Shown here: piece by piece, positions 33,196 through 49,160 of the stretch
How the letters are laid out: each line of letters opens with the position of its first letter
How positions within the stretch are numbered: the stretch's first letter is position 1
DNA from: an uncultured Bacteriovoracaceae bacterium
GTDB lineage: Bacteria; Bdellovibrionota; UBA2428
Reading direction: 5' to 3'
Length of the DNA stretch: 64,000 bases
Assembly (NCBI GenBank): GCA_964477895.1
Contig: CAYZFQ010000001.1
Location: 343,750-407,749, forward strand
Translations under genes and position numbers: made by a program
Notes under the pieces: model-generated
Told to the model about the DNA's origin: nothing
What the model saw: the letters and a program-made list of their open reading frames with translations, nothing else
Databases searched by the model: none

Positions 33196-34425
33196 ATGCG
33201 CGTCCGACTTTGGATGTTTTTTCTTTCAGCTCTTGCAAGTAATTTTACTGGGGCTCAGACCACTCACAATAATTCAAATGGTGATTTAAAAAACGAAGCC
33301 CGAGCTTCAATTGCAGCTCGCTTTGGCAAGCCCGTTTTTTGTGAGAATCCGGAGCCCTTTAAGGCGAAGCCTCGGCAAATGCTATCGGGAGTTCTTTCCG
33401 TAGTTGCCCCCCACAATTTACAAATGGAAAACGCCGAACCCTACTTTTATGCCCGGCGAATTGAGGGCAAGGGTCTACGAGTGTACTATCACGACGCGCG
33501 ACGAATCGAATCTCCTAGCACTTTGGTGGCCTACTTAGCGGACTCTGACTCAAATGGGGAGATCCAGCAAATTCTCTTTGTTCGGGGTAATCAGCGGGAG
33601 ATTAAGCTCGCAAAAATGCTAGATCTCGGGGCGGGCCTTTCTTCGGACCAAGAGGAAGCTGCGCCCTTTCGTGAAAAATTAGACAATATGGGAAAAAATT
33701 TTTTCAGAGTCGAAAACGCACCTAATGCCCACGGTCAGAAAGCCTTAAGTGAGCCAGAGCGAGAAAAAATCGCGGCTTGTTCCAATATGGATGATCTCAT
33801 GCGAGCGGTTGTAAGCGCGGGCAAGAGTGTGGGATGGAAGCCCTCAATGGCAGTAGACGATGGAGCCGGCGAGGATTTAGTTCGTGCTATTGGTGTGAAG
33901 TTCGCCAACCCTGCTCATTCCTACCTTGGGGCTCCCGCGCGCTTTGTGGGATCGGTTATAGACTTGGGCGAGGCCCGTAATGATTTTGTGGAGAATGAGA
34001 AAAAATGGGTAAAGAATGCGAAAATGGACGGAGCTTTGTCTGTTATCCCGCAGGGTGTTCAGCGAAATCTAGCTAAAGTCATGCTGCTGGACACTGCCCT
34101 ACAAAATGAAGCTAGCATTAGAACAGGCGCAAACTTTGTCGCCTCTATGGGGACAGGGATCGTGGGCAAAGGCAAAGCATTTATTAAAAGTGATTGGGAT
34201 GAAATGCAGCAGGTCGTTACAAATTCTGCAGCTGACCTCATATTTATCGGTGGAATTATAAAAATGGCTACCCCTCATGTGAAAGCTCCAAAAATAAACC
34301 TTCGTAAAACACCCGTCGTGAGTCAGGCCGCCGTTATAGATCAGACGGTGAACAATGTGGACCGACTCGGAAATACTGTGGGAGTGGGTGAAGAAGAGCG
34401 AGAAGCCAAGGAGCCTGCTCGTTAA
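33196..34425 (+). CDS. hypothetical secreted protein, 409 aa (same operon as the metalloprotease)
   Basis: Signal peptide. Starts 2 nt after the metalloprotease stop. Confidence 0.55.
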   Translation: MRVRLWMFFLSALASNFTGAQTTHNNSNGDLKNEARASIAARFGKPVFCENPEPFKAKPRQMLSGVLSVVAPHNLQMENAEPYFYARRIEGKGLRVYYHDARRIESPSTLVAYLADSDSNGEIQQILFVRGNQREIKLAKMLDLGAGLSSDQEEAAPFREKLDNMGKNFFRVENAPNAHGQKALSEPEREKIAACSNMDDLMRAVVSAGKSVGWKPSMAVDDGAGEDLVRAIGVKFANPAHSYLGAPARFVGSVIDLGEARNDFVENEKKWVKNAKMDGALSVIPQGVQRNLAKVMLLDTALQNEASIRTGANFVASMGTGIVGKGKAFIKSDWDEMQQVVTNSAADLIFIGGIIKMATPHVKAPKINLRKTPVVSQAAVIDQTVNNVDRLGNTVGVGEEEREAKEPAR

Positions 34426-34495: not shown

Positions 34496-35821
34496 ATGAA
34501 GGATATTTCCCGTCTTTTCTATTTGGGATTATTCGTTTTTGCGCCGGCACTTCGTGCCCAAGATACACCTGTGTTGGATAATACTAATAACGATGAGGTG
34601 GTTGAGAAGGCCAAAAAGGACGCCGAAGAGAGTGTGGCAAATCTTGAGAAGAATAAACAGAAGTTAGATGAAGCCGCTCAAGCCGGTGAATCGCTCCGCG
34701 AAAAACTTAAAGAATCTTTTTCTAAGTCTAAGGGTGGGGGCAGTAAGGACTCCGGCAATTCCGATAAGGAAGCGGGCGGAGCTGGAGCTCCGGCAGGAAC
34801 AACTACAGGCACTGGACATGGCAAAGCCGATGAGAATGGCGAAGCTATGGCTCCCCGCAAAGACGGCTCTACAGGTTATTACGCAGAATCGAAGGACCCC
34901 TCCGAAGTCATGGGTCCCAAAGAAGCCTACCGAAAACAAAACTTTAAAGGTCCGGCTGAATCTAACTTAAACTGGGAAGAAATAAGCGCACGACGCAGAG
35001 CTCGTTCGGACGCCCCCTTTGAACTCGGTTCGGACGCACTCAATGAATTTAAAGATGTGAATTGTGAAAATGGACAGTTCCCCCAGAACTCCCTTCAATT
35101 TATGTTGGAGGCGGGCCGAAATCGCCTAGAACAAGAGGGCAATCCCTCGGCCGAACGGTGTCGGATGGTCGGAGCCCAAGTTGCCAAACTGGCGGGTATG
35201 GCCGAAGGAGAAAGTAGTTTTAACTTTTCCTGCCTAACTTTGCACGGATCGGAAAAAGAGTCTGGTCGAGCAGGCTTTCGCTCCGTTTACACCCCCGACA
35301 ATAAACGATGGCAAATGTCTTCCTATGCATCTTATAAAAATGCACTCTCTGAGTTTGGTGGGAGTGTTAACCACACCACCAACAATGGGGTGATGCAGAT
35401 TTCTCCAGATCAGTTTATTCGTAAGGGAGCTACAGAACTTCTGGATTTCTACTCAAGCGGAAGTCCCGACGAAATCCTGAAAAAGTGTGGAACCGGTCGA
35501 GCATTCCATGACAGCGCCGATGCTCTGGCTGGAGAAATTGAAGAGTTAGCTGGACGTCGTACTTTGATGTTCAAGGAAAGAAATGGTCAAAAAATCTACA
35601 CTAACTTCGCTCGGAGCGCGCGCGACGTAAGTAGATGGCTAACCATATGTCCTGCCCTGAACTTTGCTATGGCTCAAATAATTTTAGATGACTACGGGTA
35701 CTCAGGCGGAGATTCATCCAAAATTCGAGCCTATTTCGGCACGGCCGCCAAAAAACCTCGTTGTGAACAAGTCATCCAACAAGCCCTCTGCGGCAGCTCA
35801 GGCCAGCTAGCAAGTAATTAG
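34496..35821 (+). CDS. hypothetical secreted protein, 441 aa, with charged low-complexity N-terminal region
   Basis: Signal peptide LFVFAPALRAQ, then a K/E/G-rich tract, then a Cys-containing globular part. Confidence 0.55.
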   Translation: MKDISRLFYLGLFVFAPALRAQDTPVLDNTNNDEVVEKAKKDAEESVANLEKNKQKLDEAAQAGESLREKLKESFSKSKGGGSKDSGNSDKEAGGAGAPAGTTTGTGHGKADENGEAMAPRKDGSTGYYAESKDPSEVMGPKEAYRKQNFKGPAESNLNWEEISARRRARSDAPFELGSDALNEFKDVNCENGQFPQNSLQFMLEAGRNRLEQEGNPSAERCRMVGAQVAKLAGMAEGESSFNFSCLTLHGSEKESGRAGFRSVYTPDNKRWQMSSYASYKNALSEFGGSVNHTTNNGVMQISPDQFIRKGATELLDFYSSGSPDEILKKCGTGRAFHDSADALAGEIEELAGRRTLMFKERNGQKIYTNFARSARDVSRWLTICPALNFAMAQIILDDYGYSGGDSSKIRAYFGTAAKKPRCEQVIQQALCGSSGQLASN

Positions 35822-35860
35822 CCCAGGCGCGTTAAGGTCCTCAATATTTTCGCAAGATCG

Positions 35861-35877
35861 CCGATAAGAGATATCGG
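35861..35877. promoter_or_regulatory. inverted repeat CCGATA-N5-TATCGG overlapping a GCCGATAA (sigma-28 -10-like) octamer, just upstream of flp1 SD
   Basis: Read directly. Candidate operator or FliA-type element for the pilin operon. Confidence 0.3.
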
Positions 35878-35891
35878 AAGGGGAGATAGAT

Positions 35892-36077
35892 ATGAACGTT
35901 AAGAAGAACAAAAAAAGAGGCCAAACTTCGGTGGAGTACATTCTCATTATCGGAGTCATTGTGGGCGTGATTATGCTTTTCGGAAAAACATTCCGTGAAA
36001 AAATCGCGGTTATCACGGATGGTCTTTTCTCGAACATCAACAGCAATATTCAGAGCAGCACCAACCCCGGAGGTTGA
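35892..36077 (+). CDS. flp: Flp/Fap-family type IVb pilin 1, 61 aa
   Basis: Basic leader then G/QTSVEYILIIGVIVGVIML: the Flp motif, with a prepilin-peptidase site after Gly and the conserved E-Y. Confidence 0.8.
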   Translation: MNVKKNKKRGQTSVEYILIIGVIVGVIMLFGKTFREKIAVITDGLFSNINSNIQSSTNPGG

Positions 36078-36078
36078 T

Positions 36079-36264
36079 GTGAAAAAACGAAAAGGACAGG
36101 CTCTTATCGAGTATGTCCTTCTCGTTGCCCTGCTTTCTACCGCGACATTGGTCTACGTGAAATTTTACGGCAAAGAAGTGTTGGGGAATGGTCTTAGGGC
36201 TTTGAAGGGGAGGATGGGGGATTGTATCTCTCATACGAATCGACAATGCAAATCTGGCCAATAA
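36079..36264 (+). CDS. flp: Flp-family pilin 2, about 62 aa from GTG 36079
   Basis: KKRKG/QALIEYVLLVALLSTATL. GGAGG lies 5 nt upstream of the GTG. The track ORF start at 35995 overlaps flp1. Confidence 0.7.
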   Translation: MKKRKGQALIEYVLLVALLSTATLVYVKFYGKEVLGNGLRALKGRMGDCISHTNRQCKSGQ

Positions 36265-36524
36265 AGAAGAAGCGAAAAAAGAATAAACGCAGCGGTCAGA
36301 CCGCCGTGGAATATATTCTGCTTCTGGCCGTTCTCACGAGTGTCCTTGTAGCAGGTCGCAAAGCTATGATGGAACCCCTCAATCAATTTTTTTCGATTTA
36401 CGTGCGCGGTTTTTCCAATACCTATAATCCCGAGACTTCCGCATCCACAGGCGGCAAAGATTTTACCCTTTATTACCTCAACGGCGGCTCCCCTGCCCCT
36501 ACCTCCACGGTCAAGGTACGTTGA
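36246..36524 (+). CDS. flp: Flp-family pilin 3 with C-terminal extension, about 92 aa
   Basis: KRSG/QTAVEYILLLAVLTSVLV. Start assigned at the internal ATG 36246. Confidence 0.6.
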   Translation: MQIWPIKKKRKKNKRSGQTAVEYILLLAVLTSVLVAGRKAMMEPLNQFFSIYVRGFSNTYNPETSASTGGKDFTLYYLNGGSPAPTSTVKVR

Positions 36525-36525
36525 T

Positions 36526-37146
36526 ATGAAAGGCGCATCTTCACGTTCTAAAAGCGGCCAAACAGTTATTGAGTTTTCTTTTGTTATTATTCTTTTTGTT
36601 TTTATGATGATGGTCACCATCAATGCGGTGATTGCCTTTTGCACCCACCAGTACGTATCTTATGCCGTTTTTATGTCGGCTCGGGCCTACCAGGCTGCGG
36701 GGGGCACGGCCGACGAATCTCACACCCGAGCTGTGGCAGCTCTTCAATCCTACCTACCGGGCATTCCCGACGACAGCGGTGAAGGCCTTAGTATTCCTCT
36801 CACCATGCCGGGGATGGCCAAGCCCATTGCCACTATCGAGGGCGTGAACGTGCGTTCCCCCCAGCTTTATGACTATGGCCCCGCTGGTGAAATCGCAAAC
36901 GTAGAAATTTATGTGGATTTTTCTGTTCCTTTTGTGGACCTCCCCTTAGGACCGGAAATGCGGGCGCGGTTCGGAAAAATTCCTCTCCGGGCCAGTTCAT
37001 TTTTTGGCCGAGAAGCCTCACAGCAAGAATGCCAAGCTTTTTTTAAAAGATTCTTAGAGTCTTTTAAGATTTCCGGAGAAGTCGCGGGAGCTTACGAGAA
37101 CTTTTCCTCGGAGTTTTTTGGAAATATGGAGGACAACGGATGTTGA
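36526..37146 (+). CDS. tadE: TadE-like pseudopilin, 206 aa
   Basis: N-terminus SKSGQTVIEFSFVIILFVFMMM, as in the TadE/TadG N-terminal domain. Confidence 0.65.
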   Translation: MKGASSRSKSGQTVIEFSFVIILFVFMMMVTINAVIAFCTHQYVSYAVFMSARAYQAAGGTADESHTRAVAALQSYLPGIPDDSGEGLSIPLTMPGMAKPIATIEGVNVRSPQLYDYGPAGEIANVEIYVDFSVPFVDLPLGPEMRARFGKIPLRASSFFGREASQQECQAFFKRFLESFKISGEVAGAYENFSSEFFGNMEDNGC

Positions 37147-37604
37147 TCACTTCAAAAAAAGGCCAGGCCATTACAGAGTTTCTTCCGGCCTGCATTATTT
37201 TATTTATGGTGATGACGGCCGCCCTTTCGTATTACCGGGTGATGCGCGCGGCTTCCATTCGCCAAGAAGTGGTGCGCAATTTGACCTTTGCTAAAATTCG
37301 CAATTCTGGACCTCTCACCACCACACCCGACCAACTCGCCGGTGGTTCAGGGTCGGGACTTCCGCGACTTAACATGGAGCGCATCAGCGTTTCCGGTGGG
37401 CGCAATGCCATTGCCGAGACTCCGGTGATGAATGCCGGAAATCACGACTTTATTCGCTTTGATTCCAACTGTTTCACCGTTTATCCGGCGGATCCCAAGG
37501 TCACGATAAAACTGGGTCCCCTCATGATGGCCGGTGACCTAGGGGATTTAGATTTTAGCACCTACGCCGTGATGTACCGGGGCCCGGGGGGCGGCTGTCC
37601 TTAG
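37140..37604 (+). CDS. TadE/TadF-like pseudopilin, 154 aa
   Basis: KKGQAITEFLPACIILFMVM N-terminal motif. Overlaps the previous gene by 7 nt. Confidence 0.6.
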   Translation: MLITSKKGQAITEFLPACIILFMVMTAALSYYRVMRAASIRQEVVRNLTFAKIRNSGPLTTTPDQLAGGSGSGLPRLNMERISVSGGRNAIAETPVMNAGNHDFIRFDSNCFTVYPADPKVTIKLGPLMMAGDLGDLDFSTYAVMYRGPGGGCP

Positions 37605-37662
37605 GCCAATTTAAGAATTTTCCGAAAAGTTCCGACAAGAACTTGAAAGAAATGGGGGATTT

Positions 37663-38580
37663 GTGAACCAGTCGAGAGCCTTCTTGATGAGCATCGTGTT
37701 TGCCGGCCTCGCCATGCTTTTGGTTTACTTTTACGTTTCCGAGCGTGAGAGCAGCATTTCCGCCGAATACGGCACGCCCATTGCGGTGATCGTTGCCGCC
37801 AAAGACATCAACGAGTTCGAAGAAATTCAGCAAAGCATGTTGGCCGTAAAAGTCGTGCCCATGAAATTTGCTCAGCCAGGCGCTTACAACATGATCAAAT
37901 CGGGTAAGACCGAAAAACTTTCGCAGTTTACGGTAGAAACTTTTGTGGGCGCCGTGGCTTCGGCTCCCATTCGTAAGGGTGAGCAGGTCCTCTTAAATAA
38001 AGTTTTACTCAAGGGCGTGGAAACAGGCTTGGCCTCACAAGTCGCCATTTCGCGCCGAGCTCTTTCGATTCCCGTGAACGACACCACGGGAGTGACTAAA
38101 CTTTTAAAACCCGGCGACCGCGTGGATCTTATCGCGAGCGTTCAGTACAAGGGTCAGGGCGGTCAGGAATCTGAAGTTAAAACCCTCATGCAAAACGTTC
38201 ACGTTTTGGCCGTGGGTGAAGTGATCCAAAATAAAATTCCTACAGCCTTTGAAGTGGATCCTCTTTCAGGAACCCGAAAGGCTTTGAACCTTCGGGGGAG
38301 CCGCCAGTTCGGAACCATCACCGTAGAGGTCACCCCCGGCGAAGCTCAAAATATTATATGGGCTCTTCAAAACGGTTCTGAAATTTATACCAGCCTTCGA
38401 AATCCCGTAGATCGTGTGGTGGCCTCCGTCCCCACATCAACTGTGGACGAAGTCTTGGGACCTAACTCCAAAAAGGCCGAGCGGGAGCGAGTCAAACCCG
38501 TTATCAAGCCCGTGGAAAAAGCTCCGCCTCCGCCACCGCCTTCCAGCTTCAGCAACTCGGGTGGGGGATTATTTAAATAA
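37663..38580 (+). CDS. cpaB: Flp pilus assembly protein CpaB/RcpC, 305 aa
   Basis: N-terminal TM anchor then SAF/beta-rich domains. Gene order conserved with the Tad locus. C-terminal PPPPPPSS tract. Confidence 0.75.
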   Translation: MNQSRAFLMSIVFAGLAMLLVYFYVSERESSISAEYGTPIAVIVAAKDINEFEEIQQSMLAVKVVPMKFAQPGAYNMIKSGKTEKLSQFTVETFVGAVASAPIRKGEQVLLNKVLLKGVETGLASQVAISRRALSIPVNDTTGVTKLLKPGDRVDLIASVQYKGQGGQESEVKTLMQNVHVLAVGEVIQNKIPTAFEVDPLSGTRKALNLRGSRQFGTITVEVTPGEAQNIIWALQNGSEIYTSLRNPVDRVVASVPTSTVDEVLGPNSKKAERERVKPVIKPVEKAPPPPPPSSFSNSGGGLFK

Positions 38581-38581
38581 T

Positions 38582-40414
38582 ATGAGAAAGTCTTTCTTAA
38601 AGTTTTCTCTTTTGGTACTCGGAGTTTTTATAGGCTCCCTTCGAGCTCAGGACGCCGAGCCGGCTCCAGATTCCTCAACTAACCGAAATCCAGCCATGGT
38701 TCCTCCGGCGGGTTCACCGGCCGAAGCTGAGCCCGCACCCACTCCCTTGGCTGAAGAAACCCCAGCTCCCACTCCGCTTAAGGAAACCCTTTCATTAATA
38801 GACGGGATTAAAAGCGATGTTCCTGGATCCATTGCAGATACCAACGTTAACCGAATCATGGAATCTAAGGTTAAGTCCCAAACTTTAAATCCTGACAAAG
38901 GCTTTGAAGACCTCTTCTTAACTAAGAACTCCAGTGCGGTATTAGACATTCATAAACTGCCCGTGAAAAATCCCGGGGAAGATTTGGAATGGCTCCAAAC
39001 CAATATTGGCATTGTGGCCAAATCAGAAAAAGACCCCTCAGGTGGTTTTCGTGTTTATGCGGGAACCCAAGTGGGTTCGACTCAAATTCTTGTTTACGAG
39101 CGCAAGGCCGCTGTTGCCGGTAAACGAGATCGTGGAAATCTCCTTAAAGTCTACCGAGTAACGGTAACCAGCGAAGACCTTCTTTCACTGCTCCAAGAAA
39201 TTAAGGCCCTAATCGGAAATGTGGAAGGTCTAGATATTCGAGTGGTGGGCACCCAAGTCGTGATTGATGGAGCGGTCCTTGTCCCCAAAGACATGCGCCG
39301 AGTGGTGGCCGTGGTGAGCAAATATCAAACAGAGAAAAAGCCAGTGATTAACTTAGCTGAGATCTCTCCTCTAACTACCAAGCTTCTGGCTGAAAAAATG
39401 GAAGAAGAAATTGCGGGTGGAAAAGACCGACCCCGCGAAATTAAAGTTAAAGTCGTGAACGGAAGGTTTTTCCTAGAAGGTGCGGTAGACAAACAGGCTG
39501 AGCGTGAAACCGCCGTTCGAATTTGCCAAGCCTACATTTCAGAGCGCTACACCCTTGAAAACTCAGCCTCGGTGCAATCGCCTCGAATTCCAGGCCTTAA
39601 TGAATGTGTGCTGATGGTAAAGATTCGCCAAGGCCAGCCGGCGGATCCCGATCCCATCATTAGTGTACGCGTGGATTTTGTTACTTTAGATCGAAACTAC
39701 CTTAAGAGCTTTAACTTTAGGTGGGCGCCTGGAATGAACTTGAAGGGCGAAGTGGGTTATTCCAGTGACGCCGGAAAATTTCTCACTTCCTTTGTGGGCC
39801 TCTTGGATAATCTATTTCCCAAGTTAGAAACAGCGGCTTCTCATGGACATGCGCGTATTCTTAAAACGGCAACTCTTCTTGTGCGAGACGGCGAGAACGC
39901 GGCCAAAGGTGGGGGAGCGCCGCCCGAGGCTCAAATATCTGAAGTGTTAAAACTTCCTGTAATGATTCAGGGCACCGCTAATTCGCCAGGATCTTTCACC
40001 ACGGTTCCGGTTGAAACCTACATTAAAATTTTGGCCAAATCGGTGCCAGGGTCCGACAAAGTGAATATGGATATCTCAGCCAAGCAGTCTGAGATTAAAA
40101 GCCAAAACAAAGAGCAAGGTCCCACCGTCTTAGACAACATGATCCAAACCAGTATCGTGGTGGCCAACGGTGAAAGTGCGGCCTTAGGTGGCTTGATTGC
40201 CGAACGTCGCAACGTAGATATCACCCGGGACCCGGCCTCCGATGGTAACGCGGCCACTTCAGCCCAAAATAAATTTGAACTCTTCGACATCGGTCGAGGT
40301 CATAGCTTCAGCGACTCCAAAGTGCAGTTTATTGTCTTTGCCACACCCGAGAAACTGCGCACACCCTCTGAAGGAACCGAAAAACTTAAGCGTAAGTTTA
40401 GGTTGAGGAAGTAA
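38582..40414 (+). CDS. cpaC: Flp pilus secretin CpaC/RcpA, about 610 aa from ATG 38582
   Basis: Signal peptide MRKSFLKFSLLVLGVFIGSLRAQ. C-terminal secretin signature VVANGESAALGGLI. The track ORF begins inside cpaB. Confidence 0.8.
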   Translation: MRKSFLKFSLLVLGVFIGSLRAQDAEPAPDSSTNRNPAMVPPAGSPAEAEPAPTPLAEETPAPTPLKETLSLIDGIKSDVPGSIADTNVNRIMESKVKSQTLNPDKGFEDLFLTKNSSAVLDIHKLPVKNPGEDLEWLQTNIGIVAKSEKDPSGGFRVYAGTQVGSTQILVYERKAAVAGKRDRGNLLKVYRVTVTSEDLLSLLQEIKALIGNVEGLDIRVVGTQVVIDGAVLVPKDMRRVVAVVSKYQTEKKPVINLAEISPLTTKLLAEKMEEEIAGGKDRPREIKVKVVNGRFFLEGAVDKQAERETAVRICQAYISERYTLENSASVQSPRIPGLNECVLMVKIRQGQPADPDPIISVRVDFVTLDRNYLKSFNFRWAPGMNLKGEVGYSSDAGKFLTSFVGLLDNLFPKLETAASHGHARILKTATLLVRDGENAAKGGGAPPEAQISEVLKLPVMIQGTANSPGSFTTVPVETYIKILAKSVPGSDKVNMDISAKQSEIKSQNKEQGPTVLDNMIQTSIVVANGESAALGGLIAERRNVDITRDPASDGNAATSAQNKFELFDIGRGHSFSDSKVQFIVFATPEKLRTPSEGTEKLKRKFRLRK

Positions 40415-40417
40415 ATC

Positions 40418-42607
40418 ATGGCTGATCCAAACCAAAGTCCGGGCGGTCACATCATCGCCATCGTAGGTGGTAAGGGTGGAGTTGGAAAATCAGTTTTTGC
40501 CGCCAACTTTGCCCTCTCCATGGCCATCGATGCCAAGAATGGCCCGGCTCTAATTGATATGGATCCTCAGGGTACCGGCGACTTAAATTTGATCTTAGGC
40601 ATCAAGCAGGTCAAAGGTTTCGGTGAGCAAGTGCTCGAGGGAAAGATTCGAGATTCTGCGGCCCTAAAGCAATTTCTGACCCCAGCTCCTAACACACAGA
40701 GCCCACTTTACACCTTGCAGATGATGAGCAACCCTGAGCGCCTTCTCGTCCAAGATGATGAGCGTGTGGATTTAGCCTTAAAATCTTTGCGCAAAGCCTT
40801 TCCTGTAACCATCATCGACTGTGGCACTTCACTTGAAGGGCCGATTCTTAAAGTTTTGGATTTGGCTTCGATGATCATGGTAGTGACCAACCCCGAGATT
40901 CTTGTTCTCAACCAGACGAAGAAGATCTTAGATAAAATCCAAACCCTGCTTTATCCGCCCGACATGACAAAAATAGTTTTAAACAAGGTTTCACCTCAAA
41001 GTCCCTACACGGCGCAATTTTTAGAGCAAAGTCTTAAGCGCCAGGTGATATCTGTGGTCCCTGAAGATGTGGCTGCCGCCAGTATGGGTTTGGCCAAAGG
41101 ATCTCCTTTTGTGGTGTCTTCACCTCAGTCCGGCGCCTCCAAAGCTCTTTTCCAGCTCAGTCGCCTGCTCATTGAGCGCAAAGTCTTAGATCAGCTCCAA
41201 ACTCTAAGTCGCCCCCCTCGTCCCAAAGCGGCCTTGGAAGTTATTGAGGGCGGAGCCTCATCGGTGGCTGCAGGCTCCAGCGGTAACAATGAGGTTAAGC
41301 ACGGACGTTTTGGAAAGGATCCCAGAGATCCGCGCAGCATTTTTAAACTCCGAGTCCATGCTCAGCTTGTTGAAAAAATGGATTTAAAAAAAGAACAGCT
41401 CGATCGGGCCTTAGACAACGAGAAAAAAGTGGAGCTTAAGAACAAAGCTCTTAAAATCGTGAGTGAGATCATGAATAACGAAGACCACCCTTGGAAGAGC
41501 CGCGAAGACAGCGCTCAACTCATCAAGGAAGTCTTAGATGAGGCCCTAGCCCTGGGGCCCTTAGAAGATTTGATAGCCGATGATTCCGTTACCGAAATCA
41601 TGGTGAACCGAGCTGACCTAATTTATATTGAGCGCGCGGGTCGCAATACTAAGTCTAAAGTAACTTTTTCAAGCAATACCCAGTTGATGGCGGTCATTGA
41701 GCGGATCGTCAATCCTATCGGCCGGCGCATTGATGAAAAAACCCCCTACGTAGACGCCCGTTTAGCAGACGGAAGCCGGGTCCATGCCATCATTCCTCCC
41801 CTTTCATTAGATGGTCCCATGGTCACCATTCGTAAATTTCCTAAAAAGCGATTGGGCCCTGAAGATTTAATTAAATACGGTTCGGTCACACCCGAAATGT
41901 CAGATTTTTTACGAGCCTGCATTGAAGCCCGCCTCAATGTGATTGTGAGTGGGGGTACGGGTTCTGGTAAAACCACTCTTTTAAATATTTTATCAAGTTT
42001 TATCCCAGCAACTGAACGTATCCTTACCGTGGAAGACGCGGCCGAGTTGCGGCTTAACCAAGAGCACGTGGGCCGTTTAGAAACACGTCCTCCCAATATC
42101 GAAGGCGCCGGTGCTGTTACTATTCGAGATCTGGTACGCCAAACTCTGCGTATGAAACCTGACCGCATCATCATTGGTGAAGTGCGAGCCGGTGAGGCGC
42201 TCGACATGCTTCAGGCCATGAATACGGGGCACGATGGTTCAATGGCCACGGTCCATGCCAATACTCCGCGAGATGCCATCGCTCGTTTGGAAACTCTCGT
42301 GATGATGGCGGGCATGGACTTACCCGCCAAGGCCATTCGCGACCAAATTTCTAGCGCTGTGCATTTGGTGGTTCAACAAAGCCGTTTATCCGATGGGTCT
42401 CGTAAAGTGACTTACGTGACGGAGATCACCGGGATGCAGGGAGATGTGATTTCTTCCCAAGATATATTTCAGTTTAAGCAACAAGGTTTGGATTCCAATC
42501 GCAAGGTAATCGGTAAGCACGTGGCGACCGGTTTTATTCCTAAGTTTATCGAGAGGATTGAGGCTTTGGGAATCAAAATTCCCCGAGGACTCTTTAAAGC
42601 GGCATGA
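40418..42607 (+). CDS. fused TadZ/CpaE-like ParA-type ATPase (N-terminal about 260 aa) and TadA/CpaF secretion ATPase (C-terminal), 729 aa
   Basis: Deviant Walker A IVGGKGGVGKS near the N-terminus (ParA/MinD). Later VSGGTGSGKTT, DRIIIGEVR and GHDGSMATVHAN (VirB11/TadA). A single uninterrupted ORF. Confidence 0.8.
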   Translation: MADPNQSPGGHIIAIVGGKGGVGKSVFAANFALSMAIDAKNGPALIDMDPQGTGDLNLILGIKQVKGFGEQVLEGKIRDSAALKQFLTPAPNTQSPLYTLQMMSNPERLLVQDDERVDLALKSLRKAFPVTIIDCGTSLEGPILKVLDLASMIMVVTNPEILVLNQTKKILDKIQTLLYPPDMTKIVLNKVSPQSPYTAQFLEQSLKRQVISVVPEDVAAASMGLAKGSPFVVSSPQSGASKALFQLSRLLIERKVLDQLQTLSRPPRPKAALEVIEGGASSVAAGSSGNNEVKHGRFGKDPRDPRSIFKLRVHAQLVEKMDLKKEQLDRALDNEKKVELKNKALKIVSEIMNNEDHPWKSREDSAQLIKEVLDEALALGPLEDLIADDSVTEIMVNRADLIYIERAGRNTKSKVTFSSNTQLMAVIERIVNPIGRRIDEKTPYVDARLADGSRVHAIIPPLSLDGPMVTIRKFPKKRLGPEDLIKYGSVTPEMSDFLRACIEARLNVIVSGGTGSGKTTLLNILSSFIPATERILTVEDAAELRLNQEHVGRLETRPPNIEGAGAVTIRDLVRQTLRMKPDRIIIGEVRAGEALDMLQAMNTGHDGSMATVHANTPRDAIARLETLVMMAGMDLPAKAIRDQISSAVHLVVQQSRLSDGSRKVTYVTEITGMQGDVISSQDIFQFKQQGLDSNRKVIGKHVATGFIPKFIERIEALGIKIPRGLFKAA

Positions 42608-43473
42608 ACGTTTGGCTTATCTCCATACTTTCAGCGCTGCTTTTCTTTTTTTCGCTGTATCTTTCTTTTGATTATTGGTTCGAAAAACTCTGGCTGGGTA
42701 ACATGGTCAAAACCACAGAAGAAGCCGTGCGAGTTTTTGAAGATGTCTTTCAGCCCAAAACTATTGAACAAATGCGCAACCTGCAACTATCTATTGCCGG
42801 TGGCTCTTCGGCTCTAATTTTATTCCTGTGTTGGCCGGAAGTGGCCATAGGTATCCCCGCAGCTTTAATTACTTTTTGGTACACCTGGAAGCTGCCCCTT
42901 GTTTATATCAAGTATTGGGTGCGCCCCCGTCGAATTACCCAGTTTTCCCACCAAATGGTGGACGCTCTGACTCTTATGGCTAACGGTCTTAAGTCCGGGC
43001 TCAACATCTCCCAGGCTTTGCAAATTGTGGTGGACGAGATGCCGGCCCCCATTCGGGAAGAGTTTGGTTTAGTGCTCAACGAGAATAAAATCGGGGCCAC
43101 CTTAGAGAAGGCTTTTGAGAACATGGGAGCTCGGATGCCGTCAGAAGACGTGAGCATGTTTGTGACCTCGGTAAACATTTTGCGCGAAACAGGCGGTAAC
43201 ATCGCCGAAACTTTTGAAACCATTACCAAAACCATCCGCGAACGCATCAAATTACAGAATAAAATATCAGCCATGACGGCCCAAGGGATGACTTCAGCCT
43301 TCATTGTAGGAGCCATGCCCTGGGGCATTGGCATCATGCTCTATGGGATCGACCCTGACACGATGCGGCCAGTCTTCACTCGGGCCGCGGGCATTGTGAT
43401 CTTAATGATTATTACGGCACTCGAGGTGCTAGGTTTCTACGTGATCGTCAAAATTGTGAGGATCCGCGTATGA
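42604..43473 (+). CDS. tadB: TadB/TadC-type (T2SS-F domain) inner-membrane platform protein, 289 aa
   Basis: Three TM segments with a T2SS-F fold. Only one copy present. 4-nt overlap with the ATPase gene. Confidence 0.75.
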   Translation: MNVWLISILSALLFFFSLYLSFDYWFEKLWLGNMVKTTEEAVRVFEDVFQPKTIEQMRNLQLSIAGGSSALILFLCWPEVAIGIPAALITFWYTWKLPLVYIKYWVRPRRITQFSHQMVDALTLMANGLKSGLNISQALQIVVDEMPAPIREEFGLVLNENKIGATLEKAFENMGARMPSEDVSMFVTSVNILRETGGNIAETFETITKTIRERIKLQNKISAMTAQGMTSAFIVGAMPWGIGIMLYGIDPDTMRPVFTRAAGIVILMIITALEVLGFYVIVKIVRIRV

Positions 43474-43553
43474 TACAGAGGGCCCATGAAAAACTATTGA
43501 CGCCTTACCGGATGAGAAACCGGGTTAGACTATTAAAAAGTTCAGGAGGGATT

Positions 43554-45149
43554 ATGGCTCGTACTCGAAATCTTTGGCTTCTTGGAGTTCTTTTATTCAG
43601 TGCTTCTATCTCGCAGGCGGGAGTGAACGTGAACAACGGGAATTTCTACATTGCGTATACGGATTTTTTCCTTCCCACTCCGGGACTGAATGTGGAAATC
43701 ACCCGCACCTACAATAGCCGATCAAACTATGCCAAAGGCTACTTTGGGATGGGTTGGTCCTCTGAAATGGAAGGTTACCTAGTTTTCGATAAGAGCACCT
43801 TGGTTTACTTCGAGGGAGGCGGAGGTAACGCCGTTCGCTTCGAGCCTGTGAAAGGTAAAAAAGGGGAGTGGTCTAACTCCATCTACGGAAATCAAAATAT
43901 TCGGCAAATCAAAAATGGCTATGTGCTGCGCACTCCCGTGGCTAAGGACCTCCAGTTTGATATGAAGGGCCGGCTGGCCAAGATTTCCGACCGCAATCGC
44001 AATTACATTGAGTTTGTCTACAAGGGTGTTCGCCCGCAGATGATCAAAGACAACCACAATAACCAAATCAAAATTAGCTGGAAAGACTTCGGAAAGTTCC
44101 CCCGAATTGTGGCTCTCGAGCGTGGTGAAATGAAAGCCCGATATGAGTATTCACCAACCGGTGATCTTGTTAAGGCCTCCGGCCTCGATGGCAACCCTTT
44201 CGAGTACGCCTGGGATGACGAACACAATCTCACCAAGATTTCTTATAAAGACGGCACCTACCGAGAAATCGCTTACAACAAAGTTCGCGACTGGGTTGTG
44301 AAGTACCGGGAGCGCGACAAATGGATTACCGACTACGAATATATCTCGGATACTTTAGATCCAGAGAATAAATTTGGAACCGTTGTGAGCCGCTACAAAG
44401 AGGGCTCAAAAGATAAAGAATCATCGCGCTACTGGTACGAGTTCCGCCGGCGCGCGGATGGCAGTCGTTACAATTACAAAGCCGTAACGCTAGCCAATAA
44501 CTTAGCGACAGAGTCCATCTTCACGGAGTGTTGCAATACTCCACTTGTCATTTCGCAGTGGAACAGCAATGACCCCAAACGAAGTGACGCACCGGATGCC
44601 TGGATTACAGCCAAGGGTCAAAAGCGCTCCACTTTTTTTGAATATTATGCCGATGGATTGTTAAAGAAGAAAACGGCTCCGGATGGAGCTGTAACTTTCT
44701 TAACCTACGATCCTAAAAATGGGAAAGTGGCCTCGGTAAGCCGTGCCGGTCGTAAAGTGGAATACAACTACGATGTGCGCGGAAACTTAGACTGGGCCTA
44801 CGATAGTGGCGACAATAAGCGCATTGACCTGACCTACGACCTTAAGGGTCGAATCACGGTAGTTAAAGAAGCGATCAATGGTGCCAAAGCCAGCTCTCGA
44901 CTCGTGTACTTCCGCTACAATGCTGAAGGAAAACCGATTGAGGTGAAAGAAAAAACTTCAGACGGCAACCAAGGATCCATTCAAATTGCCTACGATCGTA
45001 ACGGCGAAGTCTTAGCCATCACCAACAGTAAGGGTCGGGCCGTAGCTTCTGAGAACGAAATCGCAACGGCTCAGCGAGTGGCCATGACTTTCCAGAACTT
45101 AATGGAAATCGTGCAGCCCGCAGGGGTTAGCCTGAGTCCGGAAGGGTGA
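43554..45149 (+). CDS. secreted YD/RHS-repeat protein, about 531 aa from ATG 43554
   Basis: Perfect SD CAGGAGGG plus signal peptide. Repeated Y-x-YD/YEY motifs (YEYSPTGDLV, FEYAWDDEHNL, VEYNYDVRGNL, LTYDLKGRI). Plausible counterpart of Bdellovibrio hit-locus partner protein. Confidence 0.7.
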   Translation: MARTRNLWLLGVLLFSASISQAGVNVNNGNFYIAYTDFFLPTPGLNVEITRTYNSRSNYAKGYFGMGWSSEMEGYLVFDKSTLVYFEGGGGNAVRFEPVKGKKGEWSNSIYGNQNIRQIKNGYVLRTPVAKDLQFDMKGRLAKISDRNRNYIEFVYKGVRPQMIKDNHNNQIKISWKDFGKFPRIVALERGEMKARYEYSPTGDLVKASGLDGNPFEYAWDDEHNLTKISYKDGTYREIAYNKVRDWVVKYRERDKWITDYEYISDTLDPENKFGTVVSRYKEGSKDKESSRYWYEFRRRADGSRYNYKAVTLANNLATESIFTECCNTPLVISQWNSNDPKRSDAPDAWITAKGQKRSTFFEYYADGLLKKKTAPDGAVTFLTYDPKNGKVASVSRAGRKVEYNYDVRGNLDWAYDSGDNKRIDLTYDLKGRITVVKEAINGAKASSRLVYFRYNAEGKPIEVKEKTSDGNQGSIQIAYDRNGEVLAITNSKGRAVASENEIATAQRVAMTFQNLMEIVQPAGVSLSPEG

Positions 45150-45161
45150 TAGGGGAAGAAA

Positions 45162-45584
45162 ATGAAAATAAAAATTTTATCTCTTCTCAGTATTTTTACT
45201 CTCACAAGCTCCGCTTTTGCCCAAGGCTACATTCAGGGTAGGGGCGGCGGAGGCTGGGATCAGCAAGGCGGCACCCAAGAAACGATTCGTTATCGTGAAA
45301 GCTATAACCAGCAGGGCGGTCAGCAGGGCGCCTACGTGAATTGTATGCCGAATTGTCCACCCTCGGTGGTGATGCCACAGCGCTCCCAGGTGCTAGTTGC
45401 TGAAACCGGTGACATCATCAATGGTTGCGACACGGGCCGCTTTGATAAAAAAGAATGGCGCAACGACTACCGTGATGAAGGCGACGAACGCGAGCACGTG
45501 ATCAGAGAAAGAGTGTATGTACCACCTCGGTCAGAAGGCGATGGTAAAGAAGTGCCTCCAAGAAGTAACGGTTTAAAGAAGTAA
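45162..45584 (+). CDS. small secreted Gln/Gly-rich, four-Cys protein, 140 aa; candidate hit-locus (Bd0108-like) protein
   Basis: Signal peptide. GGGGWDQQGGTQ...NQQGGQQG repeats encoded by imperfect direct repeats CAGCA(A/G)GGCGG at 45261, 45309 and 45321. Position immediately after the tad genes and the YD-repeat gene. Confidence 0.5.
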   Translation: MKIKILSLLSIFTLTSSAFAQGYIQGRGGGGWDQQGGTQETIRYRESYNQQGGQQGAYVNCMPNCPPSVVMPQRSQVLVAETGDIINGCDTGRFDKKEWRNDYRDEGDEREHVIRERVYVPPRSEGDGKEVPPRSNGLKK

Positions 45585-47729
45585 TTACTTCGTAACTCCA
45601 CCTGTGTAAGAAGGCAGCCAGCTCCAGCCCCAAGTGCTGGGCTTATTCCAAATGCGCTTTGGAGGTCCCGCTTTTTTCGGCTGCCAGTTCCATCCGGGCA
45701 TTCCCTTAATGGAATAAGTTTGCTTTCGTTCTATTTCCCTTTCTTCAGCGGCAATTCTAATGGAACTTTCGCTCCACTGATCCGCTCTTTCAAAAGCCAA
45801 GCTAAGAGACTTAGCATCGTGCTGAGCACTGTCTAAGCGATTCAGGGAAGTGGTCTCTCTCCAGAACGGCTGGGTGGGTGTGGAAATTTCTGGCGTGGGC
45901 AGCTGGGCTTCCGCTTCAGGCAAATTAATTACCGCCACTACCCCTGGATGCTTTTCCAGATTAGCCATTTTTTCGGGACTGTGAGCTTCTTTTTCAGCGG
46001 CAGCCTCAGCTTCTTTGGTCATTGTCTTAATTTCTTCTTCAAGACCCTTTATGGCCTTGTCCAAGTTGGCAATGTCGCTAATGTCGAAGTCGCTTTTAGG
46101 AGGCCCAATGTCGTTTTTCTCTTGTATAAGTTTATACATTTCATCGCTTTTCGCCCGAATGGCCAAGTGGTCTTCTTTCGACATCATAGGACGAGCAATA
46201 ATCACAATAGACTTAGTCTCGGACGGTGGAGCCATGGGCATTGGGGGGCCTTCTAGCGCTGGCGCACCAGGCGGTAGCTTTCTAAACTCGAGTTGGGGTA
46301 TTTCTTCGTTGCCAGTCTTGGTGACATCGACCTCGATGAAGGGCACTAATTTTTCAACCGGAGCTTGTACTCTTTCTAAGGGCCAAAATCTTTTAGCAAA
46401 GGCGCCTTCAATCGCTGTGATAACATCTTCGGTTTTAGATAGGGCGCGAGCCACGTAAATCTCGCTATTCTTCGCATTGACTAATGCCGGACCATCGATG
46501 CCATTGTAAGTTCCAGCAAGATAGGCCGGTGAAAAGAATTTTTGGAGCATGGAGCGCACGAGCAGAAGATCTTCCCGATTTTGCTTCCACTGCTGATAAA
46601 AGGCACGAAGTTCTTCTTCTCTTTCCACTTCAGCAAACGAATTTTGTCCCAGATTCGAATGAATTCCTTCTAAATCAGGCATGAAATCATTTTTAACCAC
46701 ATCGAGATAGAGATCGCTGATATCTTTTTGAGCCCGGGCAAGGCTGTCGGCCACAGGATCTACACGGTAAACAGTGACCTTGGCTCGATAGGCCGTTTCA
46801 AGAGCGCCGACAACAATTCCCGCAATTGCAAGGCCAGAGGCGGTTTGACTCATGTGCCGACTCATCCCATCCATTAAATCTGGAATAAAGACCCGATTGC
46901 CGTAGCCTAAAAGGAGAGTGCCTGGCGCTGCAGGATTGGCGGGAGCCGTTGGAATCGCACCTTTCTTGGCGCGTTTCGCCAACACGCGTTTCCACTGTAA
47001 GTCGGAAATTCGTTTAGCATACCTGTTGCTAAACCAAAGTTGAGGTCGATGAGCTCGGCTTTGTAAACGATTGCCCGCCATCGAGAGGCCACCAATAACC
47101 ATGCGTCCGGTAAAGAGGGCGGCCGATGCCATGAGCCATCCTTCCGAGGCGTTATAGAAATTATTTGAGTGATATGAGAACTCTCCGTTTTGTTCGCGGT
47201 TTCGTTTAACTTCAAGCTCATTGCGCATTTTTGCTTGTAACGTGCTCATCAGCATGGAAATGGCGTCCCAAATGACGTCGGGCTTTTGAGGAAAGGTGAC
47301 GAGAGCGGTTCGAGAATAAACTTCTGTAATTTCTCCCATCATGGCTGCAAATGAAGCCTTCTCAGTGAGAGTATCAAAAAGCAAAGTTGCCACTTCGTCG
47401 GCTGCTTGCTCCGGGCTCAGAGAAAGAAGTACGGAGTTGGCGTAACGGTCGCGGCACCGCTTTCCATCGAGGCGTAACTCTTCGGCGGAAGCCTTGCCCT
47501 CCGGACTTTGAAGATTTTCATCAGGAGGCAAGAGCTTTCGATAAGTCTTAAAAGGTTCAGCGCGAGGGGTGGTGTCGAGTGCGGAGGCCTCTCTGTCTGC
47601 CAGAATACTTACGCACAGATATTCCGTGATTTTTTGCCGAGCGAGTTCGAAATCATCTTTAACTTCAGCCCCCTGGGCAGATAAAAAAGTGCCAGAAATC
47701 AACGCTAAGAAAAGGGTTTTGTAACTCAT
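45585..47729 (-). CDS. hypothetical secreted protein, 714 aa, Trp-rich C-terminal tail
   Basis: Signal peptide. C-terminus GMPGWNWQPKKAGPPKRIWNKPSTWGWSWLPSYTGG. Its stop codon abuts the stop of 45162..45584 (TAATTA). Confidence 0.6.
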   Translation of the reverse strand: MSYKTLFLALISGTFLSAQGAEVKDDFELARQKITEYLCVSILADREASALDTTPRAEPFKTYRKLLPPDENLQSPEGKASAEELRLDGKRCRDRYANSVLLSLSPEQAADEVATLLFDTLTEKASFAAMMGEITEVYSRTALVTFPQKPDVIWDAISMLMSTLQAKMRNELEVKRNREQNGEFSYHSNNFYNASEGWLMASAALFTGRMVIGGLSMAGNRLQSRAHRPQLWFSNRYAKRISDLQWKRVLAKRAKKGAIPTAPANPAAPGTLLLGYGNRVFIPDLMDGMSRHMSQTASGLAIAGIVVGALETAYRAKVTVYRVDPVADSLARAQKDISDLYLDVVKNDFMPDLEGIHSNLGQNSFAEVEREEELRAFYQQWKQNREDLLLVRSMLQKFFSPAYLAGTYNGIDGPALVNAKNSEIYVARALSKTEDVITAIEGAFAKRFWPLERVQAPVEKLVPFIEVDVTKTGNEEIPQLEFRKLPPGAPALEGPPMPMAPPSETKSIVIIARPMMSKEDHLAIRAKSDEMYKLIQEKNDIGPPKSDFDISDIANLDKAIKGLEEEIKTMTKEAEAAAEKEAHSPEKMANLEKHPGVVAVINLPEAEAQLPTPEISTPTQPFWRETTSLNRLDSAQHDAKSLSLAFERADQWSESSIRIAAEEREIERKQTYSIKGMPGWNWQPKKAGPPKRIWNKPSTWGWSWLPSYTGGVTK

Positions 47730-49141
47730 TCGGCAGCTCCATTTTTAGTGGTTCGGGGAAAGGTGGTCATATAATCATCAATGATAATTTCTACGGCTTT
47801 AGATGTGCGGCCATGGCGGTACATCTCACTTAAAGCTTGGAGGGCGAGAATTCCGGCATTTTGGGTGGATAGTCTCTGTGCTTCAAGACTGAGCGAAAAA
47901 GCAGCGGGATCCGCATCAAAGCGTTCCCATTCGGAGTAAAAAAGCTCGATGACTTTTGGATTGTTAAGCGCTTGGGAGCTATCCAAAAACTCTGCCGTGT
48001 CTCGGGCGACTGTTGCTTCATCAGTGGCCTCACGCACTTTTTCATAATGACTTTTTATAAGAACATGGGTTTTATCCATCGTGAGGCGGTAAAGATTAAT
48101 TGTTTGGGATTCGAAGCGGCGGAAGGCACTTTCTATATCCCAGGAATTGGCGGTTGATCTTAGCTTGCGAAATTCTTCTAAAGCCTCGAGGTATTTCTTT
48201 TCTGCCTTCAAATCCTGGTTGTAAAATTTGTTAACCCCAACGGCGATTCCAGCCGTGAGTAACATGGAAGAAAGCAACTGTTCGGGTTGAATGGTGTTGT
48301 AAACAGCTCTCCCTCCCTGCAGCATTTTTTTGGCCAAGCGCGGCCAGAGAGCCTTTTCATCGCTCAGAGCAAGTTGAGCTAAAAAAGAACAATTCTTTGA
48401 ATTTGACCACCGGCTAAAAGCCGAGGTCTCAAAAGCTTTTTCAACTACAAAGTTGGCCAAGGTGTTTTCCGCGCCGGCTAAGTAAAAATCTTCCACGTAT
48501 TCACGCAGAGCATTTTCCTCTAGGTCTACCGGAGCAACGTCGAGCTTTACACCTAGGATTTCAGCAGGTGATGTGGGGATTTTAAAAGAAGCCAAGGAGT
48601 TGCTCACTCCCTCGATGCCCTTAATCGACCCTGCCAGCGAAGCTGCGGGAATCGCCGAATAACCCAGTCGTAAAGCATTCTTTGACCAGGACCCACGAGC
48701 TGAGGCCAATAGATTGAGGTAGCGGCGCCTAAACACCGGGGTGCGGATTAAGCCGTTGAAGGCAAAGGCGGTATAAAGACCGTACTGAGCGCTTCGACCC
48801 AGAGACTCTTTTTTGAGGTCTGCAACTGTTGTTTCGTAGTTGGCGGTCCAGCGCTGTTGGGCTTTCCATAGCAAATCTAAATAAGCGTCATCAGTTTCTG
48901 AGAGTTCAGAAAAGTGTTCTAAAGTTTTGCGGTAGATAGGAGCAAAGGGGTCACGAAAGATTTCCGCGAGTATTTTGTTAGAATAGCGCCGCGCTAAATC
49001 CGGTTTTTGAGCATGATAATTTTTTACAAATTCGGCAGACCAGTTCTCGATCGGCATCTCCTCGGCATGCAAGAAGGCAGACAAAGCGAGGCCCAGAAAG
49101 GGACCTTTTTTCGCTAATGTCGTTAGAGCCTTCATTTTCAT
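47726..49141 (-). CDS. hypothetical secreted protein, 471 aa
   Basis: Signal peptide. ATGA overlap with the downstream 714-aa gene. Confidence 0.6.
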   Translation of the reverse strand: MKMKALTTLAKKGPFLGLALSAFLHAEEMPIENWSAEFVKNYHAQKPDLARRYSNKILAEIFRDPFAPIYRKTLEHFSELSETDDAYLDLLWKAQQRWTANYETTVADLKKESLGRSAQYGLYTAFAFNGLIRTPVFRRRYLNLLASARGSWSKNALRLGYSAIPAASLAGSIKGIEGVSNSLASFKIPTSPAEILGVKLDVAPVDLEENALREYVEDFYLAGAENTLANFVVEKAFETSAFSRWSNSKNCSFLAQLALSDEKALWPRLAKKMLQGGRAVYNTIQPEQLLSSMLLTAGIAVGVNKFYNQDLKAEKKYLEALEEFRKLRSTANSWDIESAFRRFESQTINLYRLTMDKTHVLIKSHYEKVREATDEATVARDTAEFLDSSQALNNPKVIELFYSEWERFDADPAAFSLSLEAQRLSTQNAGILALQALSEMYRHGRTSKAVEIIIDDYMTTFPRTTKNGAAE

Positions 49142-49160
49142 GCCTTCCTTAAAGTTTTCC

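Follow-up and report, generated by a model that had tools for sequence, protein, structure and literature searches.

A Tad pilus locus of an uncultured Bacteriovoracaceae bacterium with the gene order of the Bdellovibrio host-interaction (hit) locus

Among genetic handles on how Bdellovibrio switches between obligate predation and axenic growth, its host-interaction (hit) or TAD locus is the best known, and the Tad genes of this locus are essential for prey invasion. Whether the two secreted proteins encoded at its end are an oddity of that genus or belong to a more widely shared predator pilus machine is the question raised by a similar region in an uncultured Bacteriovoracaceae bacterium (assembly GCA_964477895.1, contig CAYZFQ010000001.1). 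The window, i.e., the whole stretch of DNA that was analyzed, comprises 64 kb, and its numbering is used here; the region in question (35892-45584) packs 11 plus-strand open reading frames (ORFs), read from a program-made ORF list, with a spacing of -19 to +80 nt between neighbours. In order, these encode three Flp-type pilins, two TadE-like minor pilins, CpaB, a CpaC secretin, a TadZ-TadA fusion ATPase, a single TadB/C platform protein, a YD-repeat protein and a small secreted protein. An earlier sequence-only reading had described nine contiguous Tad genes followed by the YD gene and a gene for a 140-amino-acid (aa) secreted protein, and this description holds for all 11 ORFs, in position as well as in domain content, the latter assigned by Pfam and NCBIfam scans of the window ORFs. 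Taken together, the analysis suggests that the region is very probably a single operon of about 9.7 kb, orthologous to the TAD/hit locus Bd0119-Bd0108 of Bdellovibrio and like organisms (BALOs), and that it represents the predator-type Tad machine of its lineage.

Gene order shared with the Bdellovibrio hit locus and its relatives

The reference for comparison was 20 kb of B. bacteriovorus CP160489.1 around Bd0108 (L083), located with an artificial 44-aa look-up key made of Bd0108 peptide fragments that were deduced from the text and primers of a published study (PMC3818213). Its gene series consists of a Flp1_like protein (62 aa), four proteins of 64, 82, 213 and 168 aa, CpaB (301 aa), a secretin (509 aa), a CbiA+T2SSE fusion (739 aa), a T2SSF protein (291 aa), a DUF6531/YD protein (550 aa, Bd0109) and Bd0108, and all 11 slots occur in identical order in the window, which bears out the hit-locus architecture proposed earlier. 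In BLASTP comparisons, the TadZ-TadA fusion was 48% identical to its 739-aa counterpart from end to end, CpaB 36% (5e-59), TadB/C 36% to the 291-aa protein (1e-58), and the secretin 29% over 439 aa, while the similarity of the pilin-like proteins was limited to their N-terminal helices. The alignment of the YD protein with Bd0109 was full-length (28% identity and 177 bits; residues 9-527 versus 6-548), whereas the small protein gave no BLASTP match to Bd0108; thus, the anticipated similarity of the last two genes to hit-locus proteins was found for 43554..45149 and not for 45162..45584. Based on full-length similarity and conserved synteny, the YD protein can be regarded as the Bd0109 orthologue; the B. 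bacteriovorus genome holds four other RHS proteins (PMC3818213). As judged from the alignments and gene order, nine of the 11 slots are orthologous to those of B. bacteriovorus.

A separate observation concerns the reference itself. In L083, bd0108 (9840-10150 of that region) carries a frameshift near codon 33/34, and only a 49-aa C-terminal fragment of it was called as a gene; when the two frames are joined, a protein of 101 aa is obtained, whose length, Cys56/Cys59 and residues 73-101 agree with the published protein. The CP160489.1 strain therefore looks like a host-independent (hit-mutant) derivative.

A wider locus set was assembled by scanning one genome per species, which gave 80 loci, nearly all labelled as Bdellovibrionota (Bacteriovoracaceae, Halobacteriovorax, etc.); a few labels were generic or evidently mistaken, e.g., "Sulfitobacter sp.". 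When about 80 loci were searched by tblastn with every protein of the window, the order and orientation cpaB-cpaC-tadZA-tadBC-YD proved to be kept in most of those that were sufficiently long, so the hit-locus arrangement is common to most of these Bdellovibrionota loci. The arrangement in the window is well past what chance would produce; the same order recurs in B. bacteriovorus and about 80 other loci. Exceptions were five loci in which the tad block is inverted relative to the YD gene (L010-L012, L015-L016) and two with an insertion between tadBC and YD (L009, L086). Besides, in 75 of 78 loci the fusion ATPase was covered across its two domains by a single high-scoring segment pair, and, because they are near-universal across loci, the TadZ-TadA fusion and the single platform gene are better seen as a lineage signature than as a peculiarity of the window. 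Among 239 homologues of the YD protein, all those with a source name came from Bdellovibrionota, Bdellovibrionales or Peredibacter.

The window belongs to a distinct clade with loci L003-L018 (genome scan) and L084-L086 (metagenomes), in which identities are 43-74% for YD and 63-80% for TadZA; by these proteins, the clade is about equally far from Bdellovibrio (YD 28%, TadZA 48%) and the Halobacteriovorax type (YD about 32%, TadZA about 47%). The conservation of eleven slots in this divergent uncultured clade and across some 80 loci argues that the YD protein and its small partner are integral to the predator Tad machine rather than a Bdellovibrio oddity. Several details of these loci may be recorded here. 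In L086/L087, the insertion between the tadB/C and YD genes (7352-9863) consists of a gene for an AAA_14/DUF4143 ATPase and a 410-aa gene, and the YD-small pair stays joined in all rearranged loci (L086/L087, L009, L010-L012, L015-L016). L003 (CAMCVE010000010.1) is labelled "Bacteriovorax stolpii", and this label looks doubtful, as the locus has 54.6% G+C and falls in the window's clade rather than with the Halobacteriovorax/Bacteriovorax type.

Gene content, prepilin processing and predicted promoter

The marks of a Tad (type IVc) system that can be recognized from the predicted proteins are Flp prepilins, a TadA-type ATPase, a TadZ-type domain, an RcpA/CpaC secretin and RcpC/CpaB. The first gene, flp1 (35892..36077, +), encodes a 61-aa Flp-type prepilin with the leader MNVKKNKKRG / QTSVEY, which matches Class_IIIsignal (4.6e-7) and Flp1_like (1.5e-5) and has same-position homologues in relatives (31-56% identity). 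It is followed by flp2 (36079..36264, +), whose 61-aa product (VKKRKG / QALIEY) is assigned as an Flp-type prepilin by its motif and homologues in relatives, and by flp3 (36246..36524, +), coding for a 92-aa pilin-like protein (KNKRSG / QTAVEY) that is probably a minor or adapter pilin and whose Class_IIIsignal and Flp_Fap matches, obtained with the ORF 36222-36524, were weak. The starts first listed for these two genes had to be revised: the most likely start of flp2 is a GTG at 36079, with GGAGG 5 nt upstream, and that of flp3 is an ATG at 36246. Next come a 206-aa TadE-like minor pilin (36526..37146, +; SKSG / QTVIEF; PF07811 TadE, 3.4e-5), with homologues 33-40% identical in the close clade, and a 154-aa protein (37140..37604, +; SKKG / QAITEF) for which the Pfam scan gave no match. 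The latter is considered a second TadE/TadF-like minor pilin because its basic leader ends in G followed by Q-x-x-x-E-[YF], the Flp/TadE processing signature; position and close-clade homologues (28-52%) agree with this assignment, and the same motif could be read in all five pilin-like genes.

The assembly proteins include CpaB/RcpC (37663..38580, +; 305 aa; TIGR03177, 3e-41) and a CpaC/RcpA secretin with a signal peptide and a BON domain (38582..40414, +; 610 aa; Secretin 1.4e-10, BON 5e-7). The fusion ATPase (40418..42607, +; 729 aa; CbiA 2.9e-16, T2SSE 8.9e-65, TIGR03819 2.5e-99) combines a MinD/ParA-like P-loop domain at residues 11-260 (Pfam CbiA 13-221), with the Walker A motif GGKGGVGKS and without an N-terminal receiver-like domain, and a TadA-type T2SSE part at residues 347-667 (Pfam T2SSE 379-654); its TIGR03819 score of 332.7 bits is slightly below the curated cut-off of 373. 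Only one platform gene of the T2SSF type is found in the locus (42604..43473, +; 289 aa; one T2SSF domain, 6.1e-22), with no TadB/TadC paralogue pair. All nine genes tested for codon usage (three flp, two TadE-like, cpaC, tadB/C, YD and small ORF; cpaB and the fusion ATPase served in the training set) scored best in the annotated frame or within 0.03 bits of the best. For flp1 and flp2, one opposite-strand frame scored about equally high; the annotated frame of flp3 was at the top (0.211), and the runner-up on the opposite strand reached 0.025.

The locus had been called unusually minimal, which is true in comparison with canonical Tad loci, whereas the same content is the norm for the lineage, in which the fusion ATPase and single platform are universal and tadV is absent in cis from the window, its clade and Bdellovibrio. 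In agreement with the sequence-only reading, no peptidase A24, TadD, RcpB or TadG was detected in cis by Pfam scans of the window ORFs of at least 150 aa that do not overlap longer ORFs. In H. marinus (L067), a 169-aa polytopic TadV is encoded between pilin genes (2528-3037), and tblastn detected tadV, approximately 2.5-3.1 kb into the locus, in 52 of the 52 sufficiently long loci of the Halobacteriovorax/Bacteriovorax type (among L019-L082), but neither in the window and its clade (L003-L018, L084-L087) nor in the B. bacteriovorus locus. By this measure, tadV in cis marks a clean clade-level dichotomy between the Halobacteriovorax type and the window's clade plus B. bacteriovorus. Avidan et al. 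reported that all Bdellovibrio genomes lack TadV (PMC5430801), and the tblastn results now extend its absence in cis to a second clade. Because no peptidase is found in the window, its five prepilin-type substrates must be processed in trans, for which PilD or an unlinked TadV are candidates.

With regard to expression, the exact sequence GCCGATAA is located 25 nt upstream of the flp1 ATG and is preceded by TCAA at a 15-nt spacing, and the resulting TCAA-N15-GCCGATAA element (35841..35867, +) fits a predicted sigma-28 (FliA)-type promoter by consensus match; GCCGATAA itself occurs five times in the window versus 1.8 expected. A similar element of textbook sigma-28 form, TAAA-N15-GCCGATCC, is present at roughly 23857-23883, about 120-150 nt 5' of the start codon of a flagellin gene in the window (22910-23737, -); a second flagellin gene is found at 24060-24968 (-). 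On a loose reading, CTCAA-N15/16-[GT][CA]CGATAA-like elements precede flp1 in L003, L004, L006, L031 and L083; the strict FliA pattern matched three loci only and looser reading adds several, so that conservation of the promoter across loci is suggestive only. FliA dependence has been demonstrated for the Tad operons of B. bacteriovorus and B. exovorus (PMC5430801), and a core set of 43 attack-phase genes has been published in the same study. Scans of the locus for sigma-70 promoters and terminators yielded numbers at or below shuffle expectation. At the 3' end, the stop of the small gene (45584) abuts the stop of a convergent gene at 45585 with zero intergenic bases.

The secreted pair at the end of the operon and its possible role

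The YD gene (43554..45149, +) encodes a secreted 531-aa protein with DUF6531 (1.2e-14) and RHS_repeat (4.8e-15) matches. Its most likely start is at 43554, as had been proposed, a position that has AGGAGGG 5 nt upstream and puts the signal peptide at the N-terminus; the NCBI start is 43470. An AlphaFold2 model built from an 18-sequence alignment (mean predicted local distance difference test score, pLDDT, 82) shows about 40 beta-strands, the signal-peptide helix and a C-terminal helix at residues 500-520. [quoted passage not shown] No DPxGL autoprotease motif is present in the sequence, no toxin domain appeared in the Pfam/NCBIfam scans, and the match to NF041261 RHS_core was far under its cut-off. 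On sequence and model, the protein is not a polymorphic toxin but a YD shell of half size that is exported by Sec, like the one reported for Bd0109 (PMC3818213, PMC4267844); the reading as an Rhs toxin-immunity pair was rejected on size, motifs and secretion signals.

The small gene (45162..45584, +) begins 12 nt past the YD stop, with the Shine-Dalgarno sequence GGGGAAG upstream, and encodes a low-complexity 140-aa protein of no known family, with a canonical signal peptide (MKIKILSLLSIFTLTSSAFA / QG; AFA/Q cleavage site) and three Cys. Its codon-usage score is positive in frame 0 only, and the ORF was recovered identically from two metagenome runs; the metagenomes of the source samples are SRR13208906 and SRR13208889. 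The mature protein has a Gly/Gln-rich N-terminal half, CMPNC plus one more Cys, and a highly charged C-terminal half, and the earlier description as Gln/Gly-rich therefore applies to the N-terminal half only. It is probably disordered: its hydropathy (0.363 against an Uversky boundary of 0.416) places it on the disordered side together with Bd0108 (0.373 against 0.418), and a single-sequence AlphaFold2 prediction with a pLDDT of 36 and zero secondary structure is weak evidence in the same direction; Bd0108 is experimentally disordered (PMC4267844). The protein retrieved itself alone in a word-indexed search of 5.8 billion proteins and in an exhaustive phmmer search of 1.84 billion cluster representatives (approximately 15 billion predicted proteins).

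The slot itself is conserved: in nearly every locus, a signal-peptide ORF of 55-160 aa lies no more than about 140 nt downstream of the YD gene. Slot ORFs of the window's clade are Q/G/M/P-rich with a single Cys, the Halobacteriovorax type has arrays of short [DE]C-motif peptides, and Bdellovibrio has Bd0108 (CxxC) and, presumably, Bd0103. Bd0109 homologues with small, rapidly evolving secreted neighbours have been reported from B. marinus and B. exovorus (PMC4267844) and from metagenome-assembled genomes of Bdellovibrionales (PMC10469934). Within 0-4 kb 3' of the YD gene, loci L019-L082 carry two to four short secreted peptides with the pattern [DE]-C-x5-7-[SDN]-x-R (e.g., L069 at 11622, 12689 and 13159); all E<1 matches of a hidden Markov model (HMM) of these peptides were on the plus strand and 3' of the YD gene, and the same HMM detected neither the small protein of the window nor Bd0108/Bd0103.

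Published work on the hit locus suggests how such an operon may function. Predation by B. bacteriovorus requires the flp1 and flp2 genes of its operon, and attachment does not (PMC5430801). Bd0108 is a binding partner of Bd0109, and lesions in bd0108 change piliation and permit growth without prey (PMC3818213); binding of the two proteins was assayed by ITC or NMR in another study (PMC4267844). In the window, expression timing, physical interaction, a role in prey invasion and a lifestyle-switch function are inferred from the orthology of nine of eleven slots and, for the small protein, by analogy. The predicted FliA-type promoter would drive the operon along with flagellar genes, i.e., during the motile attack phase; cleavage of the three Flp prepilins and two TadE/F-like minor pilins would fall to a prepilin peptidase encoded elsewhere; and a fibre of Flp pilins, primed by the minor pilins and assembled on the single TadB/C platform with power from the fused TadZ-TadA ATPase, would exit via CpaB and the CpaC secretin. 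[quoted passage not shown] The BALO TAD/hit locus has been placed in a Kil-like, predator-associated subclass of Tad (type IVc) systems confined to predatory lineages (PMC8460266), and membership of the window in this subclass is supported only transitively, via orthology of its proteins to those of B. bacteriovorus placed there.

Several results weigh against this interpretation. By sequence comparison, the small protein has no significant similarity to Bd0108 or even to the small proteins of its own clade. A jackhmmer search of all ORFs of the window and 85 loci returned the query alone, and an HMM of eight close-clade small proteins, which recovered an independent truncated member in L004 at 4e-12, did not match it at E<100. 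A core-motif HMM of 11 positional counterparts gave it an E of 9.4, at about rank 9 among non-family ORFs (14,845 ORFs searched), and hhalign P values were 0.043 to the 11-counterpart family and 0.34 to Bd0108. The best similarity was to the counterpart in L084, the nearest relative (29% identity across 78 aa; E 9e-4 with composition correction off). Moreover, the published Bd0108/Bd0109 model is indirect and tied to type IVa pili instead of the adjacent Tad pilus, a tblastn search of the whole 64-kb window with a Halobacteriovorax TadV gave no match at E<=10, and the source organism is a presumed predator only, as the window's clade yielded no cultured member. The small protein should hence be considered a positional and physico-chemical analogue of Bd0108 rather than a homologue, as far as position, signal peptide, Cys and predicted disorder can tell. 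A motif C-x-x-G-R-[FY]-D common to this protein, L017, L018 and L084 was also considered and dropped, as it had no statistical support from the core-motif HMM or hhalign. A broader proposal, that a hyper-variable, secreted and disordered "switch" protein gating pilus activity and the growth decision follows every Bd0109 orthologue, with the 140-aa orphan as the functional counterpart of Bd0108, is attractive but has somewhat less than even chances in our view. If it were true, lineage-specific tuning of the contact between the YD protein and its partner would account for the extreme divergence of the slot, and inactivating the small gene could give prey-independent, hence culturable, variants of lineages that are represented by metagenomes only.

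Other explanations of the region have to be considered against this background. Both Tad loci and Rhs proteins are widespread, and a non-predator's ordinary Tad pilus for adhesion or biofilms might by chance lie beside an unrelated Rhs polymorphic-toxin/immunity pair; the RHS_repeat and sub-cut-off NF041261 matches of the YD protein and its resemblance to T6SS Rhs cocoons would suit such a view. However, the protein has 531 aa versus about 1000 aa for cocoons, carries a Sec signal peptide and lacks DPxGL and a C-terminal toxin domain, and the downstream product is itself secreted, unlike cytoplasmic immunity proteins. As the tad-YD-small linkage is kept across about 80 Bdellovibrionota loci and B. 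bacteriovorus, with few rearranged, and all source-named YD homologues are from Bdellovibrionota, this explanation is largely refuted and appears extremely improbable. It is slightly less improbable, although still very unlikely, that the ORF 45162-45584 is no real gene or a decaying remnant and that the YD protein functions alone. Such a view could draw on the lack of any match but itself among the 1.84 billion representatives and on the low complexity and pLDDT of 36, but the good Shine-Dalgarno sequence, the signal peptide with its AFA/Q site, the codon score that is positive in the annotated frame only, the small signal-peptide ORF in the same slot of almost every related locus, the weak local similarity to the L084 counterpart and the identical ORF in two metagenome runs all speak for a functional gene.

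A further possibility is that the Tad/Kil-like machine puts the YD half-shell, alone or together with the small protein, onto prey as a cargo or tip-associated effector, either in the manner of a type II secretion system or as has been proposed for the Kil Tips; the half-shell would then not be a periplasmic growth-switch regulator. Both proteins are secreted and encoded by the final two genes of the pilus operon, YD shells of other systems enclose or display cargo (among the Foldseek targets), pilus-borne effector delivery has been proposed in the Kil literature (PMC8460266, PMC12075869), and the very fast evolution of the small-protein slot is what would be expected of prey-facing molecules. 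Nevertheless, the model corresponds to half a cocoon that, judging by its size, would have no enclosed cavity, Bd0108 and Bd0109 were periplasmic when expressed in E. coli, and bd0108 mutations alter piliation and prey dependence, not killing (PMC3818213). An effector role is therefore considered unlikely, and a predator-type Tad operon ending in a regulatory pair comparable to Bd0109/Bd0108 is preferred.

Flanking genes, significance and comparison with known systems

Directly 5' of the operon, three secreted proteins without a Pfam family are encoded (31413-33194, +; 33196-34425; 34496-35821), the first of which is a lipoprotein with an HEFGH zinc-protease-like motif whose homologues (21-30% identical) occur 5' of the Tad locus in L003, L004, L007, L013, L014 and L017. 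On the other side, three large signal-peptide proteins (714, 471 and 1095 aa; 45585-52448, -), also without a Pfam family, converge on the operon, and a 24% identical homologue of the first, from 45585, is located at the same place in L084. An IS200-like Y1 transposase gene (21863-22477, -; PF01797, 6.6e-9) lies between housekeeping and flagellin genes. Scans with Rfam and for tRNAs yielded no RNA gene that could serve to place the organism.

The structural features of the locus all have published precedent in BALOs, and the results for the window mainly confirm and extend previous comparisons (PMC4267844, PMC5430801, PMC10469934). What is new is the occurrence in this lineage, the small protein as a sequence orphan, and the comparative picture, in which, as far as homology searches and ORF inspection reach, tadV is found in cis in the Halobacteriovorax type only, the fusion ATPase and single platform are universal, and almost every locus has a small secreted gene behind the YD gene. 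The small gene also provides a concrete target for attempts at obtaining host-independent variants of uncultured predators.

Compared to canonical Tad/Flp pili, such as Aggregatibacter tad and Caulobacter cpa, the window has the Flp prepilin signature G/XXXXEY, TadE/F pseudopilins, RcpC/CpaB, RcpA/CpaC, TadZ/CpaE- and TadA/CpaF-type domains and a TadB/C-type platform, but TadZ and TadA are fused, one platform gene replaces two, TadV/CpaA, TadD, RcpB and TadG are absent in cis in the scans made, and the locus is extended by genes for a YD-repeat protein and a small secreted one. The YD protein shares the beta-spiral YD-shell fold and the N-terminal DUF6531 with Rhs/YD polymorphic toxins and Tc BC cocoons, whereas it is about half their size, Sec-secreted, and without DPxGL, toxin domain, PAAR/VgrG link or immunity gene. 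The Kil system of Myxococcus xanthus (PMC8460266, PMC12075869), likened here by its published description, is also a Tad-derived machine with Flp-type major and TadE/F-type minor pilins, CpaB, secretin, ATPase and platform; unlike the window, its genes are split over several clusters, with two platforms (KilG, KilH), the prepilin peptidase KilA, 14 minor pilins in four Tips and cooperation with a T3SS* (type III secretion system), and a YD protein with a small partner is not described there.

The closest likenesses are among the BALOs. The TAD loci of Halobacteriovorax/Bacteriovorax (e.g., H. marinus BMS_0182 with BMS_0183/0184; PMC4267844, PMC5430801) share the core cpaB-cpaC-tadZA-tadBC-YD, a YD protein 31-34% identical and small signal-peptide genes after the YD gene, and differ by having tadV and arrays of two to four short [DE]C-motif peptides, neither of which is present in the window. 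Differences from the TAD/hit locus Bd0119-Bd0108 of B. bacteriovorus include identities of just 28-48%, a small protein of 140 instead of 101 aa with CxxxC and one further Cys instead of CxxC, a full leader in flp2, where Bd0118 is described as a "trimmed" Flp, and a convergent gene that abuts the operon in place of a second small gene (Bd0103-like), along with other flanking genes. Nevertheless, the two loci are identical in slot number and order, both lack tadV in cis, both have a predicted FliA-type element 5' of flp1, and both end in a small secreted, Cys-containing protein that, like Bd0108, is predicted to be disordered.

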